Below are positions 41,379 through 63,762 of a stretch of 64,000 bases of DNA, in pieces. The DNA comes from a virus: IMG/VR virus record IMGVR_UViG_3300023174_006137, positions 64,001-128,000 of that record. One strand, 5' to 3'. Position numbers and translations under genes: made by a program. The notes below the pieces were generated by a model that was not told where the DNA came from, did no database searches, and saw only the letters and a program-made list of their open reading frames with translations. Each line of letters begins with the position of its first letter. Positions within the stretch are counted from its first letter, which is position 1.

Positions 41379-42962
41379 TTAATTTTTATAACTATCTTTT
41401 AAAGAAACTGTTTTTATAAAACTTCCATCTAAATCTTTGGTATAATAACCATTTCTTACAAATTGTGCAGCTTTACCAACTTCACAATTATCAATATTTA
41501 ATTCACTATAAATTATAGTTTCATGTATTACATCATTCTTTATTTCACAATTATTATCTAAAAATAAATCTTCATACTCCTTAACCATAATTTCTTTATT
41601 ATATAACGCAGAAACCCAGTGAATTGTTCCTTTTACTTTTCTATCTGACTTGCCAGATTTTGTATCTACATCAATAGTACATCTTATTTCAATTATATTA
41701 CCAATGCTATCTTTGATGATTTCATTTGCTTTTATAATATAAGCACCTTTTAATCTAACTTCGCCACCTAATTTTAAACGATAATATTTCTTATCGGCTT
41801 CTTCTCTAAAATCTTCATTTTCAATATAGATTTCTTTTGTAAAAATAACTTCTCTTTTACCATCATTTGGATTTTCAGGATTATTTTCAATTTCACAAAT
41901 TTCAGAACCTTCATAATTCGTTAAAACAACCTTAATAGGATTGAAAATGCACATATATCGATATGCTATTTTATTTAAATGATTCCTTAAACATTCTTCT
42001 AATAATTTATAATCAATTACAGATTCTCTTTTAGTATAACCAATGATTTCACAGAAATTTTTAATAGATTCTGGAGTATAGCCTCTTCTTTTTAACCCAG
42101 ATAATGTTAATAATCTTGGATCGTTTAATGTATACCCTTCTTCAATCAAAGACTTAAACTTCCTTTTACTCATTAAATGATTAACAACATTCAATCTAGC
42201 AAATTCGGTTTCTTCTGGTAAATTATTTTCTAAATCTAAATTATTTAATATCCAATTATAAAGAGGACGATGTAATTCAAATTCCAAAGTGCATAAAGAA
42301 TCTGTTATTCCTTCTATGTAATCTGAAATAGGATGAGCAAAATCATACATAGGATAAATACACCATTTATTACCAGTATTATGATGTTCTTCTTTAATTA
42401 TTCTATATATGATAGGATCTCTCATGCACATTATCGGACTTGACATATCAATTTTCAATCTCAAAGTGCAATGACTTTCTCCATAGATACCATTTTTCAT
42501 ATTTTCAAATCTATATAAATTATCCTCAATACTTCTATTTCTATAGATAGAATCTATACCTGGTTTCACTAAATCTCCTTTATTATTGGCTATTTCTTCG
42601 GAAGTTGAATCATCAACATAAGCTAACCCTTTATTTATTAATTTAACAGTACAATTATAAATATAATCAAAATAATTGGATGTATATTCTATTTTGGAAG
42701 GGTTAAAGCCTAACCATTTAATATCTGCTAAAATTGCATCAATATATTCGGATTTTTCTGCACAAGGATTTGTGTCATCAAATCTTAAATTACATGAGCC
42801 ATTATATTTTTCCGCTAAACCAAAATTTAAACACATCGATTTTGCATGACCGAGATGTAAAATAAAATTGGGTTCCGGTGGAAAACGCAATACTGGATTG
42901 ATTCCATTATTTACTTTTTCTAATATTTTTTCTTCTATAAAATTCATAATTTTTAATACCAT
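41379..42962 (-). CDS. glnS: Glutaminyl-tRNA synthetase
   Basis: RFPPEPN, HLGH, RFDDTNP, YPMYDFAH, CTLEF, MSKRK, KVKGTIHWVS. Confidence 0.95.
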   Translation of the reverse strand: MVLKIMNFIEEKILEKVNNGINPVLRFPPEPNFILHLGHAKSMCLNFGLAEKYNGSCNLRFDDTNPCAEKSEYIDAILADIKWLGFNPSKIEYTSNYFDYIYNCTVKLINKGLAYVDDSTSEEIANNKGDLVKPGIDSIYRNRSIEDNLYRFENMKNGIYGESHCTLRLKIDMSSPIMCMRDPIIYRIIKEEHHNTGNKWCIYPMYDFAHPISDYIEGITDSLCTLEFELHRPLYNWILNNLDLENNLPEETEFARLNVVNHLMSKRKFKSLIEEGYTLNDPRLLTLSGLKRRGYTPESIKNFCEIIGYTKRESVIDYKLLEECLRNHLNKIAYRYMCIFNPIKVVLTNYEGSEICEIENNPENPNDGKREVIFTKEIYIENEDFREEADKKYYRLKLGGEVRLKGAYIIKANEIIKDSIGNIIEIRCTIDVDTKSGKSDRKVKGTIHWVSALYNKEIMVKEYEDLFLDNNCEIKNDVIHETIIYSELNIDNCEVGKAAQFVRNGYYTKDLDGSFIKTVSLKDSYKN

Positions 42963-42966
42963 TTTG

Positions 42967-43037
42967 TAATCCCATACTGGAACGATCAGTATTCTTCAGG
43001 GTCAAAACCTGACGCATCACCTTAATGCTTTGGGATT
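42967..43037 (-). tRNA. tRNA-Gln(UUG)
   Basis: Cloverleaf; anticodon arm TCAGG TTTTGAC CCTGA. Confidence 0.8.
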
Positions 43038-43044
43038 ATATTTG

Positions 43045-43116
43045 TAGTCGGACTAGGAGTCAAACCCAGTCTACGAAGGCCAAATCTTCGTGTGCGCATC
43101 GGTACACTATCCAACT
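43045..43116 (-). tRNA. tRNA-Gln(UUG)
   Basis: Anticodon arm CGAAG ATTTGGC CTTCG. Confidence 0.75.
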
Positions 43117-43122
43117 ATGTAG

Positions 43123-43205
43123 TTGCCAAGACAGGACTCGAACCTGTATTTACTTCTCGTCCTCCGCTTTCAAAGAGCGGGATGCTACCATTACACCACT
43201 TGGCA
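43123..43205 (-). tRNA. tRNA-Gln(UUG), long variable region
   Basis: CCGCT CTTTGAA AGCGG; U1-A72. Confidence 0.85.
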
Positions 43206-43207
43206 AT

Positions 43208-43243
43208 AAAAAAACCGTTCAATCAAATCAGATTGAACGGTTT
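43208..43243 (-). terminator. Attenuator terminator of the Gln module
   Basis: AAACCGTTCAATC tgattt GATTGAACGGTTT followed by a U tract. Confidence 0.9.
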
Positions 43244-43264
43244 AGACAATAAAATCTCACACCA

Positions 43265-43312
43265 TCAATCTGGTTTAAATAATTGTTGTTGTTGAGAAGT
43301 TAAAGTTTTCAT
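43265..43312 (-). promoter_or_regulatory. Leader peptide MKTLTSQQQQLFKPD (Gln attenuator)
   Basis: Four tandem CAA codons; 3' CAGATTGA is complementary to terminator TCAATCTG. Confidence 0.8.
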
Positions 43313-44191
43313 TTTTTTATAATAATTTATAAATTTTTCTATTTCAGTTTTTATATATTCTTTTCCTGCTTCGTTATTTATTGATTGCCATTTTATTCTA
43401 TAAATATTAAAATGTTTTAATAAATTTTTATCTCTTTCATTATCATGTTCAACTCTATATTCATGTTGTTTACCATCTATTTCTAAATCAATATTTCCTT
43501 CTTTAATATAGAAATCTAAAAAATAATTTCCATTTCCTTCTATATTATATTCTTTTTTTATTATAGTTTTATTAGGCTCATATTTTATGCCATTGTTTTC
43601 TAATACCATTTTGAAAAACTTTTCTGGATAACTTTCAATATTTCTTGATTGCCAACCTTTATGTGTTCCATTTTTTATTCTTTCTTTAACTGAATCTCTT
43701 AATTTATTTTTATATTCCTCGCTTGTAAATTGACACTTTTTACTACAATATTTTCGATTAATATTTTTTCCAGTATATGTTTTTTTACAATTGGGACATT
43801 CTTTTATGTATTCCTCTTCATTATATTTTTTATTCCACGGAATATTATTTTTTAATGTATTAGATATTTTTTTACATCTTTCCTCATATTTTTCTTTATC
43901 AAAATTAGTATTATTTTTACCATGTTGATAATAAGAATTTGAACATGACGATGAACATGTTTTCTTACCATTTTCTGTTGTTTCAAATTCGTTAAAACAA
44001 ATAGGACAAATAAGTTTAATTTTTTGGTATTTTCTATTTTTGTTTTTATTTTCAAAAATAGATTTATTAAATCCATTTTGTTCTAAAACTTCTGCTGCCT
44101 TTTTATTGCTTCGTCCATTAGAATAACCATATAATTTTATGGCTAAGTCATTAATGGAAAAACTTTCATTTATAATTTTAATGATATCCAT
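43265..44191 (-). CDS. Homing-endonuclease-like protein (Zn fingers + DUF559/Vsr-like nuclease), in frame with the Gln leader
   Basis: CxxC/CSxxC repeats, SYPE, FLDFY...LEIDGKQH...RD; start set at ATG 44191 after AATATATA. Confidence 0.75.
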   Translation of the reverse strand: MDIIKIINESFSINDLAIKLYGYSNGRSNKKAAEVLEQNGFNKSIFENKNKNRKYQKIKLICPICFNEFETTENGKKTCSSSCSNSYYQHGKNNTNFDKEKYEERCKKISNTLKNNIPWNKKYNEEEYIKECPNCKKTYTGKNINRKYCSKKCQFTSEEYKNKLRDSVKERIKNGTHKGWQSRNIESYPEKFFKMVLENNGIKYEPNKTIIKKEYNIEGNGNYFLDFYIKEGNIDLEIDGKQHEYRVEHDNERDKNLLKHFNIYRIKWQSINNEAGKEYIKTEIEKFINYYKKMKTLTSQQQQLFKPD

Positions 44192-44232: not shown

Positions 44233-44311
44233 TGGTCGAGAAGGTGAGATTCGAACTCACGAGTTGTCTTGGTCCCAAACCAAGCCGGGTACCTGACTCC
44301 CGAACTTCTCG
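44233..44311 (-). tRNA. tRNA-Pro(UGG)
   Basis: CTTGG TTTGGGA CCAAG; encoded CCA. Confidence 0.85.
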
Positions 44312-44317
44312 TTTTTG

Positions 44318-44391
44318 CGGTCTGTACCGGGTACGATCCGGCAACCTTCCCCGTGACAGGGGGATATTGTATCCATTTCTACTAACAGACC
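44318..44391 (-). tRNA. tRNA-Asp(GUC)
   Basis: TCCCC CTGTCAC GGGGA; G73. Confidence 0.85.
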
Positions 44392-44399
44392 ATTTTTTG

Positions 44400-44477
44400 C
44401 AGTGACGACGGGACTCGAACCCGCAAACCTCCCGATAGACAGTCGGGCATTCTGACCTAAAATTGAACTACGCCACT
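44400..44477 (-). tRNA. tRNA-Asp(GUC)
   Basis: CCCGA CTGTCTA TCGGG; G73. Confidence 0.85.
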
Positions 44478-44483
44478 ATTTCG

Positions 44484-44568
44484 TCTGGGTGACAGGGCTC
44501 GAACCTGCATAAGATGTTAATCATTCTCCTGTCCAAGAGGAGTCGGCTTCCATTGCCTTCACACCCAG
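44484..44568 (-). tRNA. tRNA-Pro(UGG), long variable region
   Basis: CTCCT CTTGGAC AGGAG; C1-G72, A73. Confidence 0.8.
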
Positions 44569-44573
44569 AAATT

Positions 44574-44607
44574 AAAAAAACCTATTAGCTTTTGACTAAC
44601 AGGTTTT
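44574..44607 (-). terminator. Attenuator terminator of the Pro/Asp module
   Basis: AAAACCTGTTAG tcaaaag CTAATAGGTTTTTTT. Confidence 0.85.
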
Positions 44608-44631
44608 AAATAATACAATTTAAAAAATCGT

Positions 44632-44721
44632 TTATATAAACACATAGTTAGTCCACTCCTTATCAGGATCCTGATCCGGTTGTTGTTGTGGAACTACTTG
44701 TATGTTTATATTGTTTTTCAT
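44632..44721 (-). promoter_or_regulatory. Leader peptide MKNNINIQVVPQQQPDQDPDKEWTNYVFI
   Basis: 10-codon P/Q/D-only tract; GACTAAC is complementary to terminator GTTAGTC; promoter at 44783-44813. Confidence 0.8.
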
Positions 44722-44782
44722 TTTATTATAGTATATATTGTTTTTAAAAAATGCTTTTTTGCTATTGTTTAATTTTGTAGTG

Positions 44783-44813
44783 CAAAGATACATAAAAGTT
44801 TGAAATCAGCAAA
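44783..44813 (-). promoter_or_regulatory. Bacteroidota-type promoter of the Pro/Asp/Gln tRNA operon
   Basis: TTTG-N19-TATCTTTG. Confidence 0.8.
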
Positions 44814-49462: not shown

Positions 49463-49517
49463 TTTAAATAATTTATTTTTGTGATCATACTAAAGATATT
49501 TCACTCTAATATGTCTG

Positions 49518-49590
49518 TAGTTCCAACGAGATTCGAACTCGTATCATAATTTTAGGAGAATTATACCTTATCCTGTTAGGCTATGGAACC
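49518..49590 (-). tRNA. tRNA-Arg(CCU)
   Basis: TAATT CTCCTAA AATTA. Confidence 0.85.
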
Positions 49591-49596
49591 ATTTTG

Positions 49597-49682
49597 TACC
49601 GCTAGCAGGACTCGAACCTGCACTATCTTTACAGAAAACGGATTATGAGTCCGTCACAATTACCACATCTGCTCATAGCGGC
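49597..49682 (-). tRNA. tRNA-Met(CAU), long variable arm
   Basis: ACGGA CTCATAA TCCGT. Confidence 0.8.
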
Positions 49683-49688
49683 ATATTT

Positions 49689-49967
49689 TTATACTCTTTT
49701 ACTTCTCCATTTAATAAACTTTTTCACATCAGGATGTTCTAAAAGTTTTTCCTTTGTATTATATGTTAAGCCCATTTCTTTTTCAGTTATGAACCGATGT
49801 ATTTGCCCATGACAATAAAATTTACATATCCAAATACCATGATTTTTCAAATAATCTTTATCATAATTCTTTTTGAAGAACTTATTTGAATGCAAAGTCC
49901 TTGGAATTAAATGATGAAAATTTAAATAATCATTTGTTGAGCCACACAATTCACATTTATCTATCAT
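49689..49967 (-). CDS. Small HNH-like protein
   Basis: CELC...FHHLIP...IC..CH..IH. Confidence 0.7.
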   Translation of the reverse strand: MIDKCELCGSTNDYLNFHHLIPRTLHSNKFFKKNYDKDYLKNHGIWICKFYCHGQIHRFITEKEMGLTYNTKEKLLEHPDVKKFIKWRSKRV

Positions 49968-50107
49968 AATATATCATAATAATACCAAGTATTATCATAT
50001 TTTTCATTAACAATTTTTGTTATTTCATCTTTTTCCAATTCTTCATTAATAAAAAATGATTCATTTTTCAAATATTCTAAATCAAAATAAACTACTATTT
50101 CAATCAT
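49964..50107 (-). CDS. Small hypothetical protein (47 aa)
   Basis: MIEIVVYFDLEY...; ATGA-coupled to the HNH gene. Confidence 0.4.
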   Translation of the reverse strand: MIEIVVYFDLEYLKNESFFINEELEKDEITKIVNEKYDNTWYYYDIL

Positions 50108-50154
50108 AATTTTTTTTTTATTTTAATCAATATCTATACCTTTTTGAATTACTA

Positions 50155-50182
50155 ACTCCTGCGTATACCAATTCCGCCATAT
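50155..50182 (-). pseudogene. tRNA remnant (D-arm fragment)
   Basis: TGGCGGAATTGGTATACGC without anticodon or T arm. Confidence 0.5.
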
Positions 50183-50190
50183 GATAATCG

Positions 50191-50263
50191 TAGCTCTGAT
50201 GGGAGTCGAACCCACACATTTCCGAGTTTGAATCGGTTGCCTCGCCAGTTGGGCTACAGAGCC
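50191..50263 (-). tRNA. tRNA-Leu(CAA), short variable loop
   Basis: CCGA TTCAAAC TCGG. Confidence 0.75.
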
Positions 50264-50269
50264 ATTTTG

Positions 50270-50351
50270 TGCAGAAGAAGGGAGTCGAACCCTCACACCT
50301 TTCGGCACAGCAACCTCAATGCTGCGTGTTTACCAATTACACCACTTCTGC
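50270..50351 (-). tRNA. tRNA-Leu(GAG)
   Basis: CAGCA TTGAGGT TGCTG; long variable arm. Confidence 0.9.
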
Positions 50352-50357
50352 AATTTG

Positions 50358-50433
50358 TAGCACTCCTGGGATTTGAACCCAGAACTCTCAGGTTCTAAAG
50401 CTGAGTCCTCTGCTCTTGTTGGGATAGAGTGCC
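50358..50433 (-). tRNA. tRNA-Leu(UAG), short variable loop
   Basis: TCAGC TTTAGAA CCTGA (C31.C39 mismatch). Confidence 0.65.
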
Positions 50434-50438
50434 ATAAT

Positions 50439-50468
50439 AAAAAAATCCCGTCAAATTGACGGGATTTT
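50439..50468 (-). terminator. Attenuator terminator of the Leu/Met/Arg module
   Basis: AAAATCCCGTCA att TGACGGGATTTTTTT. Confidence 0.9.
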
Positions 50469-50490
50469 AAATAATCTTAAAAATAAGAAT

Positions 50491-50559
50491 TTACATAAGA
50501 ATCCCGTCCAATGTTTCCATTAGATTAAGCAAATTCATATTTAGATTCCTATTTCTCAT
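50491..50559 (-). promoter_or_regulatory. Leader peptide MRNRNLNMNLLNLMETLDGILM
   Basis: Uses AGG, CTA, TTG, CTT and ATG codons; contains GACGGGATT complementary to the terminator 5' arm; promoter at 50592-50622. Confidence 0.8.
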
Positions 50560-50651
50560 ATTATTATATATTAATTTTTTATTTCTTTTTACAAAAGTAA
50601 GAAAAAATTTTTATTTTACAAATTTTTTTTAAAATTTTTTTCTTGTGGTAA

Positions 50652-50912: not shown

Positions 50913-50947
50913 GTAGAATTATTTTTTCTTATATATAAATTTTTTTG

Positions 50948-51036
50948 AGTGCAAAACAGGATTCGAACCTGTGATGTTGGAATTTACCAAGACACTTTTG
51001 CAGAGTGCCGCTTTCGACCACTTAGACTACTTGCAC
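50948..51036 (-). tRNA. tRNA-Cys(GCA), long variable arm
   Basis: GCACT CTGCAAA AGTGT; U73. Confidence 0.85.
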
Positions 51037-51043
51037 AAATTAG

Positions 51044-51116
51044 AGGTGCTGATAAGAATTGAACTTATGTATTAGATTTTGCAGATCTACGCCTCAAACC
51101 GCTCGGCCACAGCACC
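51044..51116 (-). tRNA. tRNA-Cys(GCA)
   Basis: TAGAT CTGCAAA ATCTA; U73. Confidence 0.85.
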
Positions 51117-51127
51117 ATTAAATTAAG

Positions 51128-51200
51128 AGCTAAAGAACGGATTCGAACCGATATCATCTTTCATACCAAGAAAGTACCTAAACCATTCAGTCACTTCAGC
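51128..51200 (-). tRNA. tRNA-Thr(GGU)
   Basis: CTTTC TTGGTAT GAAAG. Confidence 0.85.
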
Positions 51201-51206
51201 ATTAAG

Positions 51207-51280
51207 AGCTAAGGAAGGGATTCAAACCCTCATATTCTTCATTACAAGTGAAGCGCCTAATTCAGTTCAGCCACCTTAGC
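51207..51280 (-). tRNA. tRNA-Thr(UGU)
   Basis: CTTCA CTTGTAA TGAAG. Confidence 0.85.
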
Positions 51281-51287
51281 ATTTTTG

Positions 51288-51360
51288 TTGTCCTGGTGGG
51301 TAACGATCCCACTGCCTCGATCTTATCAGGATCGCCATCTAACCATTGATATACAGGACA
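51288..51360 (-). tRNA. tRNA-Ile(GAU)
   Basis: CGATC CTGATAA GATCG. Confidence 0.85.
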
Positions 51361-51370
51361 ATTTTACTTG

Positions 51371-51443
51371 TTGGATTGATCGGTTACGATCCGACTCTCT
51401 ACACGATATCAGCGTGTTGCTTTCCCGATTAAGCTACAATCCA
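51371..51443 (-). tRNA. tRNA-Ile(GAU)
   Basis: ACACG CTGATAT CGTGT. Confidence 0.85.
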
Positions 51444-51448
51444 AATTG

Positions 51449-51522
51449 CGGGAGTAGTAGGACTCGAACCTACCACCATTCGATTAACAGTCGAATGCTC
51501 TAACCAACTGAGCTATACTCCC
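51449..51522 (-). tRNA. tRNA-Asn(GUU)
   Basis: TTCGA CTGTTAA TCGAA; G73. Confidence 0.9.
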
Positions 51523-51528
51523 AATTTG

Positions 51529-51601
51529 TATTCTTGATCGGTTACGATCCGATTACCTCCACCATGTCACAGTGGCGCTCTCCCAATTGAGCTACAAGAA
51601 C
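51529..51601 (-). tRNA. tRNA-Val(GAC)
   Basis: CCACT GTGACAT GGTGG. Confidence 0.85.
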
Positions 51602-51606
51602 ATTTG

Positions 51607-51678
51607 CTGATGAGGAGAATTACGATATCTCGACTCTCGCCTTAACAGGGCGACACTCTGCCTCTGAGTTACTCACCA
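51607..51678 (-). tRNA. tRNA-Asn(GUU)
   Basis: TCGCC CTGTTAA GGCGA; G73. Confidence 0.85.
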
Positions 51679-51685
51679 ATTTTTG

Positions 51686-51772
51686 TGATCCTAACAGGAT
51701 TCGAACCTGTGTTAACATTTACTGCCTCAGGCTTGTAAAACCTGCGCTCTAAACCAACTGAGCTATAGGATC
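51686..51772 (-). tRNA. tRNA-Val(UAC), long variable region
   Basis: CAGGT TTTACAA GCCTG. Confidence 0.85.
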
Positions 51773-51778
51773 AGTTTG

Positions 51779-51852
51779 TAGTTCCAGCGGGATTCAAACC
51801 CAGCATGAAGGCTTTAGAAGAGCCTCGTCCTATTCAGTTAAACGATGGAACC
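51779..51852 (-). tRNA. tRNA-Arg(UCU)
   Basis: AGGCT CTTCTAA AGCCT. Confidence 0.85.
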
Positions 51853-51857
51853 ATTTG

Positions 51858-51930
51858 TCGGAGCGCCGGGAGTCGAACCCGATTTAAGTGTGTATAAGAC
51901 ACCTGTGCTATACCGTTCTACTACACTCCG
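51858..51930 (-). tRNA. tRNA-Ile(UAU)
   Basis: GGTGT CTTATAC ACACT. Confidence 0.75.
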
Positions 51931-51936
51931 TTATTG

Positions 51937-52023
51937 TGGCTCAGGTCGGGGTCGAACCGACACGGGCGTTGCGGCCCACGGGATTTTAAGTCCCGCATGT
52001 ATTACCAGTTTCATCACTGAGCC
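51937..52023 (-). tRNA. tRNA-Leu(UAA)
   Basis: CGGGA CTTAAAA TCCCG; long variable arm. Confidence 0.9.
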
Positions 52024-52036
52024 ATTTTATTTACTT

Positions 52037-52070
52037 AAAAAAAAAATCTCAAACTTTTGAGTTTGAGATT
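52037..52070 (-). terminator. Attenuator terminator of the 13-tRNA module
   Basis: AATCTCAAACT caaa AGTTTGAGATT followed by a long U tract. Confidence 0.9.
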
Positions 52071-52093
52071 AAATCCAAATATAAAATATTTTA

Positions 52094-52195
52094 TTACACC
52101 TGTCGATTTAATCCCATACCAACTCTAATCACACATAACGTATTGTTATTTATGATTAAATTATTATTAATGGTATTTCTACAAATGTTTTTCAT
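52094..52195 (-). promoter_or_regulatory. Leader peptide MKNICRNTINNNLIINNNTLCVIRVGMGLNRQV
   Basis: Codons 3-25 encode only N,I,C,R,T,L,V; TGGGATTAAATC pairs with GATTTAATCTCA overlapping the terminator. Confidence 0.85.
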
Positions 52196-52282
52196 ATAGC
52201 TTATATATTTAAATTTAATTTTGTTTTTTTGTCTTATGGACTTTTTATTGTTTTATTTGCTTGTTTGTTTTTAATTATAATG

Positions 52283-52313
52283 CAAAGATACGCAAAAGTT
52301 TTAAAATAGCAAA
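52283..52313 (-). promoter_or_regulatory. Bacteroidota-type promoter of the 13-tRNA operon
   Basis: TTTG-N19-TATCTTTG. Confidence 0.8.
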
Positions 52314-62870: not shown

Positions 62871-62976
62871 GAGTCAAAGCAGGAATCGAACCTGCGATTG
62901 CTTTACCATACAGAGTGCCATTAGCCGTTAATCTCAACCTTTGGAGGTGCTTATGTTGCCACTACACTATTTGACT
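62871..62976 (-). tRNA. Atypical tRNA-like element (Trp CCA-like loop, expanded centre)
   Basis: Perfect acceptor AGTCAAA/TTTGACT, D arm and T arm; CTCCAAA loop but unpaired anticodon stem. Confidence 0.45.
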
Positions 62977-63544: not shown

Positions 63545-63617
63545 TGGAGAATGACGGTTACGATCCGACTACTTAGGTTTGCAAAACCCATGTTTTACCA
63601 ATTACAACTAATTCCCC
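63545..63617 (-). tRNA. tRNA-Ala(UGC)
   Basis: TGGGT TTTGCAA ACCTA; G3.U70. Confidence 0.85.
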
Positions 63618-63688
63618 TCTTAATGAAATGTCAACTGTTCCGGTTGGTGTTTTAAATCTTTCAATCCGTGGTTGACACTTCATTTTTG

Positions 63689-63762
63689 AGTCGATAACCG
63701 GGTTCGAACCGGCTCTATTCCAGCATGGCAAGCTGGTGCACCACCAATTATGCGTTATCGAC
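63689..63762 (-). tRNA. tRNA-Gly(GCC)
   Basis: CCAGC TTGCCAT GCTGG; U73. Confidence 0.85.

Follow-up and report, generated by a model that had tools for sequence, protein, structure and literature searches.

When a phage carries an array of transfer RNA (tRNA) genes, what decides whether the array is transcribed? To our knowledge, the control of expression of phage tRNA arrays is essentially unknown. The question was raised by a 13-tRNA array in a 64,000-nucleotide stretch of IMG/VR virus record IMGVR_UViG_3300023174_006137. This stretch, called the window here, covers bases 64001-128000 of the record, which has 159,491 bp and 26% GC. The array is preceded by a 33-codon open reading frame (ORF), and an initial annotation, made from the letters alone, had proposed that this leader lists the codons read by the tRNAs of the array. 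The analysis indicated that a ribosome-mediated (leader-peptide) transcription attenuator very probably gates the array, and that the 13 tRNAs are probably made only when ribosomes read the codons of the leader slowly. Matches to PHROG and Pfam, including a DNA helicase, an ATP-dependent protease, a metallophosphoesterase and a glutaminyl-tRNA synthetase (GlnRS), identified the record as a phage. Positions are those of the window unless they are given as genome positions.

Organization of the 13-tRNA locus

The elements of the locus, in the order of transcription, were as follows.

52283..52313 (-), Bacteroidota-type promoter for leader and array (TTTG, 19 nucleotides (nt), TAnnTTTG), from the motif scan
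52195->52094 (-), leader ORF of 33 codons (ATG and 32 sense codons) followed by TAA
52121..52189 (-), regulatory tract, leader codons 3-25, 23/23 codons array-readable
52105..52116 (-), 5' strand of the putative antiterminator, within leader codons 27-31, from constrained folds (duplex versus shuffles, p = 0.0015)
52064..52075 (-), 3' strand of the putative antiterminator, its last 5 nt being the first 5 nt of the terminator 5' arm
52037..52068 (-), predicted intrinsic terminator with a 9-bp stem, a 4-nt loop and U10, hairpin free energy -11.2 kcal/mol
50947..52023 (-), array of 13 tRNAs, from ARAGORN and Rfam RF00005

ARAGORN yielded 13 tRNAs with the anticodons that had been assigned to them, in the order Leu UAA, Ile UAU, Arg UCU, Val UAC, Asn GUU, Val GAC, Asn GUU, two Ile GAU, Thr UGU, Thr GGU and two Cys GCA. 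Twelve of the 13 also scored above the gathering score of the Rfam tRNA family (RF00005). Between the -7 box of the promoter and the start codon of the leader lay a 5' untranslated region of 87 nt, which was 62% A and had no Shine-Dalgarno sequence.

The codon tract of the leader

The leader ORF was verified at 52195->52094, and the listing of its codons 3-25 in the initial annotation was exact. Under standard wobble rules, by which codon readability was judged throughout, every one of these 23 codons was readable by a tRNA of the array, and conversely all 10 anticodon species of the array had at least one codon in the tract; both halves of the proposed match were thus confirmed. The array-readable codons made up 0.386 of the codons in the long ORFs of the genome, which gives a probability of 3e-10 (0.386^23) for 23 consecutive codons under genome codon usage. 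For 23 codons drawn from this set, the chance of hitting all 10 anticodon species was 0.10.

As an AT-matched empirical null for run length, the whole 159-kb genome was scanned in six frames, 319,000 codon positions in total. The 23-codon run of the leader was the longest in the genome and the runner-up had 13 codons, so that the match survived this null.

Promoter, terminator and antiterminator

The promoter motif follows the consensus of the Bacteroidota housekeeping sigma factor, TTTG at -33 and TAnnTTTG at -7 with a spacing of 17-21 nt. The genome held 39 sites of this motif versus about 10 in shuffles, an enrichment of about 4-fold, and a site stood upstream of each of six modules of the kind described below. 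In the scan of the genome for this motif, no site was found between any terminator and its tRNAs. The U-run of the terminator of the 13-tRNA locus ended 13 nt before the first tRNA; with no promoter in between, the array would be transcribable by read-through only. The sites of the motif were unevenly divided between the strands (30 minus, 9 plus), yet the long ORFs were evenly divided (83 minus, 80 plus).

It had also been claimed that a segment after the tract can pair with one that overlaps the 5' arm of the terminator. Such a pairing was found between 52116-52105 and 52075-52064, with 12 bp including one G-U, and 5 nt (52068-52064) were shared with the terminator arm. When the transcript was folded with ribosome footprints masked, terminator and antiterminator were mutually exclusive. 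With a ribosome stalled in the early or middle part of the tract, an extended antiterminator helix formed and the terminator was reduced to a 5-bp remnant. A ribosome placed at the stop codon covered the antiterminator strand and so blocked the antiterminator, and the full terminator formed. With a stall at the very last codons of the tract, the terminator still formed.

Sister modules in the same genome

Eight modules in the genome, seven besides the 13-tRNA module, shared the layout of promoter, leader, terminator and tRNAs. Those in the window were located as follows.

50442..50622 (-), Leu/Met/Arg module, with promoter 50622-50592, 22-codon leader 50559-50491 and terminator 50468-50442
49517..50433 (-), tRNAs of this module, Leu UAG, GAG and CAA (50433-50190), small ORFs, then Met CAU and Arg CCU (49682-49517)
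44577..44813 (-), Pro/Gln/Asp module, with promoter 44813-44783, 29-codon leader 44721-44632 and terminator 44607-44577
44233..44568 (-), tRNAs Pro UGG, Asp GUC, Asp GUC and Pro UGG, the copy at 44400-44477 found by Rfam only
43212..43312 (-), nested Gln module, with 15-codon leader 43312-43265 holding four CAA codons, and terminator 43243-43212
41379..43205 (-), three tRNA-Gln UUG (43205-42966) and GlnRS (42962-41379)
63545..63762 (-), tRNA Gly GCC and tRNA Ala UGC, distal in the Tyr/Glu/Gly/Ala operon

The Leu leader had two each of CTA, TTG and CTT, one AGG, three ATG and no TTA, and the leader at 44721-44632 carried a 10-codon Pro/Gln/Asp tract. The leader of the Tyr/Glu/Gly/Ala operon lay just past the window end (genome 129180->129085) and had an 11-codon Ala/Tyr/Glu/Gly tract. 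Elsewhere in the genome, a Ser/Arg leader (TCT, AGT, CGC) preceded tRNAs Ser GCU, Arg ACG and Ser GGA, and a His/Phe/Trp/Lys/Ser leader preceded the His, Trp, Phe and Ser UGA tRNAs. A weaker candidate, the Lys module, completes the eight. In the Gln module, the three tRNA-Gln UUG genes were mutually divergent, and a full-length GlnRS gene (Pfam tRNA-synt_1c, E = 3e-94) started a few nt past the last of them; from this arrangement (41379-43312), tRNA-Gln and GlnRS appear to be co-regulated through the decoding of Gln codons.

When all eight leaders were scored against all arrays, no other of the 40,320 permutations scored as well as the true pairing. The match extended to rare codon sets (set frequency 0.03-0.05 for the Gln, Leu and Ser leaders). 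Over the eight leaders, cognate codons made up 51% of the codons in frame, and 14% and 11% when read out of frame. In 6/8 modules, the folds sequestered the 5' arm of the terminator on a stall in the tract and left it free with the ribosome at the stop codon. The pairing between the 3' part of the leader and this arm also far exceeded that of shuffles in 6/8 modules (combined Fisher P = 5e-12).

The initial annotation had taken the match at the level of isoacceptors as a sign that tRNA species are sensed. The 13-tRNA leader alone was uninformative on this point (P ~0.37), because the array reads any synonym for Asn, Cys, Ile, Thr or Val and because the genome by default uses TTA for Leu and AGA for Arg (67-68%). 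Over the whole genome the claim held: 23/28 synonymous choices for Leu, Arg and Ser matched the array of their own leader, versus 12.8 expected (P = 1.5e-5). The Leu leader used CTA, TTG and CTT for all six of its Leu codons and never TTA, though TTA makes up 67% of Leu codons, and the 13-tRNA leader used TTA only. Such specificity for isoacceptors in the choice of codons is an argument for a role of the tRNA species.

An ORF of 308 amino acids with a DUF559 (Vsr-like endonuclease) domain was located at 43265-44191 (-), between the Pro/Asp and the Gln arrays, and read in frame and without a stop into the 15-codon Gln leader. It looks like a homing-endonuclease insertion, because the Gln leader is a free-standing ORF in relatives.

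Relatives and covariation

Relatives were retrieved with the GlnRS protein as query and with short DNA motifs. The same system was found in three IMG/VR contigs, G001 (385 kb), G003 (476 kb) and G004 (55 kb), and in two huge-phage genomes of GenBank, LR745206.1 (634,780 bp) and LR756502.1 (642,428 bp). Most of the loci retrieved with GlnRS (L004-L017) had a homologue of GlnRS but no tRNAs and were uninformative; synteny was seen in L002 and L003 only. A blastn search of the region against 50,697 phage records found similarity at the level of the tRNAs only. In the five other phage records, a stall was predicted to free the antiterminator and a ribosome at the stop codon to block it in 20/21 modules (Fisher P = 4e-22). 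In G001 and in G003, the identity pairing of leaders and arrays was the unique best of 5,040 permutations each.

Where arrays differed between phages, leaders differed with them. The relatives split Tyr/Glu from Ile-UAU/Gly/Ala arrays, and the two leaders differed correspondingly. The big array of the relatives held Met and Leu NAG/CAA tRNAs, and its leader held ATG and CTN codons; in the present phage the tract had neither ATG nor CTN, and the Met and Leu NAG/CAA tRNAs were located behind a separate leader. The association of Met/CTN codons with Met/Leu-NAG tRNAs across homologues was itself uninformative, the class in which both are absent consisting of this phage alone. In the relatives, a Gln CUG tRNA accompanied CAG codons, Glu CUC accompanied GAG and Lys CUU accompanied AAG.

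An 18-nt core of the leader family retrieved 10 modules from IMG/VR and about 60 from metagenomes, with about 40 distinct peptides among them. Chance matches of this core, with neither ORF nor tRNAs (6/16 IMG/VR loci and about one third of 80 metagenome loci), were set aside. For the 25 distinct homologous leaders with at least 8 downstream tRNAs, 477/532 tract codons (90%) were readable by the detected tRNAs.

The stems of the terminators varied by lineage, and the post-tract segment of the leader varied along with them: the encoded peptide drifted and the RNA pairing was kept. In L096 and L112, the closest homologues of the 13-tRNA leader, both helices were kept through compensatory and wobble changes; a U-to-C change in the 5' arm was offset by an A-to-G change in the 3' arm, and compatibility with the leader strand was retained. 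Across the relatives, the start codon, the open frame and a stop about 10-20 nt past the antiterminator strand were conserved, and the primary sequence was not.

A side observation on G001 concerned an ARAGORN tRNA with a CUA anticodon (L025 633-704; amber suppressor, labelled Pyl); G001 may read TAG as a sense codon. The tRNA scans found no suppressor tRNA in the present genome.

Proposed mechanism

Every sequence-level prediction for a leader-peptide attenuator that senses the tRNA supply of its own array was borne out at this locus: a short ORF after a promoter, a cluster of cognate codons, an intrinsic terminator without an internal promoter, and an antiterminator that excludes it. We infer the dynamic steps, all of them from sequence, as follows. 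Transcription would begin at the host-type promoter, and a ribosome would load on the A-rich 5' untranslated region and translate the 33-codon leader as RNA polymerase nears the terminator. With all ten tRNA species abundant and charged, the ribosome would reach codons 27-33 and the stop codon and cover the 5' strand of the antiterminator; the terminator hairpin would then form and transcription would stop 13 nt short of the first tRNA. Scarcity of any of the ten species would instead stall the ribosome within the tract; 52116-52105 would then pair with 52075-52064 and capture part of the 5' arm of the terminator, and the polymerase would read through, giving all 13 tRNAs. The net logic would be a negative-feedback OR gate on decoding speed, one of eight gates that together would cover all 20 amino acids.

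Several observations weigh against this attenuator reading. Under a standard ribosome footprint, codons 23-25, which include the sole GTT, are probably poor sensors: a stall there would probably block the antiterminator strand and not free it, because the strand is only about 5-8 nt away. The Lys module had a hairpin without a U-run and no antiterminator, and was counted only as a candidate. In the arrays of G001, G003 and G004 (L022, L029, L033), no tRNA-Cys was found even at a low ARAGORN threshold, and their leaders hold one TGT; this codon is either a relic, or the Cys tRNA is unrecognisable or located elsewhere. In several metagenome leaders the tract contained ATG, and the adjoining DNA that was examined yielded no Met tRNA. 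A shortage of tRNA and a shortage of amino acid or of charging are also not separable by sequence, the ribosome sensing charged tRNA.

On this last point, the same hardware might report the supply or charging of amino acids, as in host starvation, and not the abundance of particular tRNA species. Only aminoacyl-tRNA is decoded by the ribosome, as in classical attenuators, the Gln module would gate the GlnRS gene too, and the synonymous choices of the 13-tRNA leader carry no information on isoacceptors; but extra tRNA gives no relief of amino-acid starvation, and the leaders tell isoacceptors apart, each matching its own array, in the genome-wide count for Leu, Arg and Ser given above. We regard an amino-acid signal as unlikely. 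A factor that binds the leader RNA, either a protein or uncharged tRNA in the manner of a T-box, might instead work the switch in place of a translating ribosome, as RNA leaders that sense uncharged tRNA (T-boxes) are known in Firmicutes. This is very improbable here: no Rfam family, the T-box included, matched the leader even at E = 10, the information is placed as codons in a single reading frame, and it is start, open frame and stop placement that the relatives conserve, not primary sequence.

It is harder still to credit that the leaders are ordinary short genes or non-genes next to ordinary terminators, with leaky constitutive read-through and a codon likeness that comes from AT-rich composition. 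At 26% GC, Asn, Ile and Leu codons are common, and the array set is already 39% of codons. Against this, the 23-codon run was unique in six frames, the signal was specific to one frame, leaders with rare codon sets matched as well, the true pairing was picked by permutation in three phages, and the post-tract peptides diverged while the RNA pairing was kept. The attenuator sensing tRNA supply is the reading that we prefer.

A further and more tentative proposal, doubtful but possible, is that the eight attenuators act together as a surveillance circuit of the virus, able to tell single isoacceptors apart. Depletion of a tRNA by an anticodon nuclease or by host shut-off would derepress the matching operon only and give a divergent replacement tRNA, and the duplicated, ~50%-identical tRNAs with the same anticodon might be nuclease-resistant alternatives.

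tRNA complement of the genome

ARAGORN counted 25 tRNAs in the window, of a total of 39 in the genome; a few more were added by Rfam and by runs at a low threshold. All tRNAs of the genome were on the minus strand, and jointly they serve all 20 amino acids. Within the 13-tRNA array, the pairs with the same anticodon (Asn GUU, Ile GAU, Cys GCA; 50947-51678, -) were only ~50% identical, and several tRNAs in the same interval had non-canonical T-loops (ATCGTAA-like, not TTCGAAT) or long extra arms, with lengths of 88-90 nt.

An Rfam tRNA match with an internal insertion was found at 62871-62976 (-; 106 nt, 38.6 bits); in the intron mode of ARAGORN it was called as Trp CCA with a 30-nt intron, and its identity is uncertain. 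Intron-mode calls with introns of 855 nt and 143 nt were implausible and were not used. At genome 136309-136544 (-; L001 10309-10544), the 236 nt between tRNA-Ser GCU and tRNA-Arg ACG had tRNA-like acceptor and T arms at the ends, and may be an interrupted tRNA, with an insert or intron of about 150-170 nt. A tRNA-Met CAU at genome 139443-139515 (-; L001 13443-13515) had three G-C pairs adjoining the anticodon loop and is initiator-like. It was located between a promoter and the His/Phe/Trp leader and, alone among the tRNAs, stood behind no gate of its own; this fits, because an initiator would not be sensed by stalling in elongation.

Significance

Leader-peptide attenuation is a textbook mechanism, known for the cellular tuning of amino-acid synthesis. 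The virus appears to apply it to tRNA genes, so that each block would be made according to how slowly its own codons are read. If true, this would be the first cis-regulatory logic for phage tRNA arrays, and it would explain the sorting of the arrays by amino acid. It bears on why phages carry tRNAs, for which codon-usage match, replacement of degraded host tRNAs and evasion of tRNA-targeting defences are in question. The occurrence in LR745206, LR756502 and many freshwater and other metagenome contigs makes the system widespread and not a curiosity of one genome. The elements would also be compact, modular sensors of the decoding speed of single codons, and possible parts for synthetic biology.

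Comparison with known systems

The tRNA clusters of T4, T5, Vibrio phages and other large phages are likewise phage tRNA arrays matched to phage codon usage; we know of no codon-matched leader with a terminator gate described for them. In the full-text literature that was searched, which was largely outside subscription journals, no leader peptide or attenuator upstream of tRNA genes was found, phage or cellular. A possible precedent, a Phe-rich leader at E. coli tRNA-Phe genes, was rejected: K-12 pheV has a 105-nt upstream gap and no leader ORF. What is new here is ribosome-mediated attenuation with tRNA genes as its putative output, and it is real at the level of sequence.

T-box riboswitches likewise attenuate transcription according to the state of a specific tRNA, through a terminator/antiterminator switch. 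They bind uncharged tRNA through a specifier codon and the conserved T-box, with no translation, whereas the information of the phage leader is in a translated frame. Neither the window nor L001 nor the leader region had an Rfam match to a T-box (conserved T-box, specifier loop, stem I).

The pheM leader of E. coli pheST is likewise a leader peptide that controls a component of translation through the supply of its charged cognate tRNA, and pheST resembles the phage Gln module that would gate GlnRS. The output of pheM/pheST is a synthetase and a single amino acid is sensed, whereas the phage modules mainly have tRNA genes as output.

The layout is also like that of enterobacterial attenuators of amino-acid operons. 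Scans with the Rfam gathering thresholds and at E = 10 matched none of the leader families (Leu, His, Thr, Trp). In ilvGMEDA (Ile/Leu/Val), thr (Thr/Ile), trpL, hisL, pheL and leuL, a short ORF close to the promoter likewise carries its regulatory codons in a run, for several amino acids in the multivalent leaders, and is followed by an intrinsic terminator. An antiterminator competes with this terminator, and a ribosome that has reached the stop codon covers the 5' strand of the antiterminator; a stall at a hungry codon gives read-through. The phage module differs in that it is viral and would control tRNAs and not biosynthetic enzymes, and in that it has ten tRNA species over 23 codons, Bacteroidota-type promoters, an A-rich 5' untranslated region without a Shine-Dalgarno sequence, and eight copies, which jointly serve all 20 amino acids.

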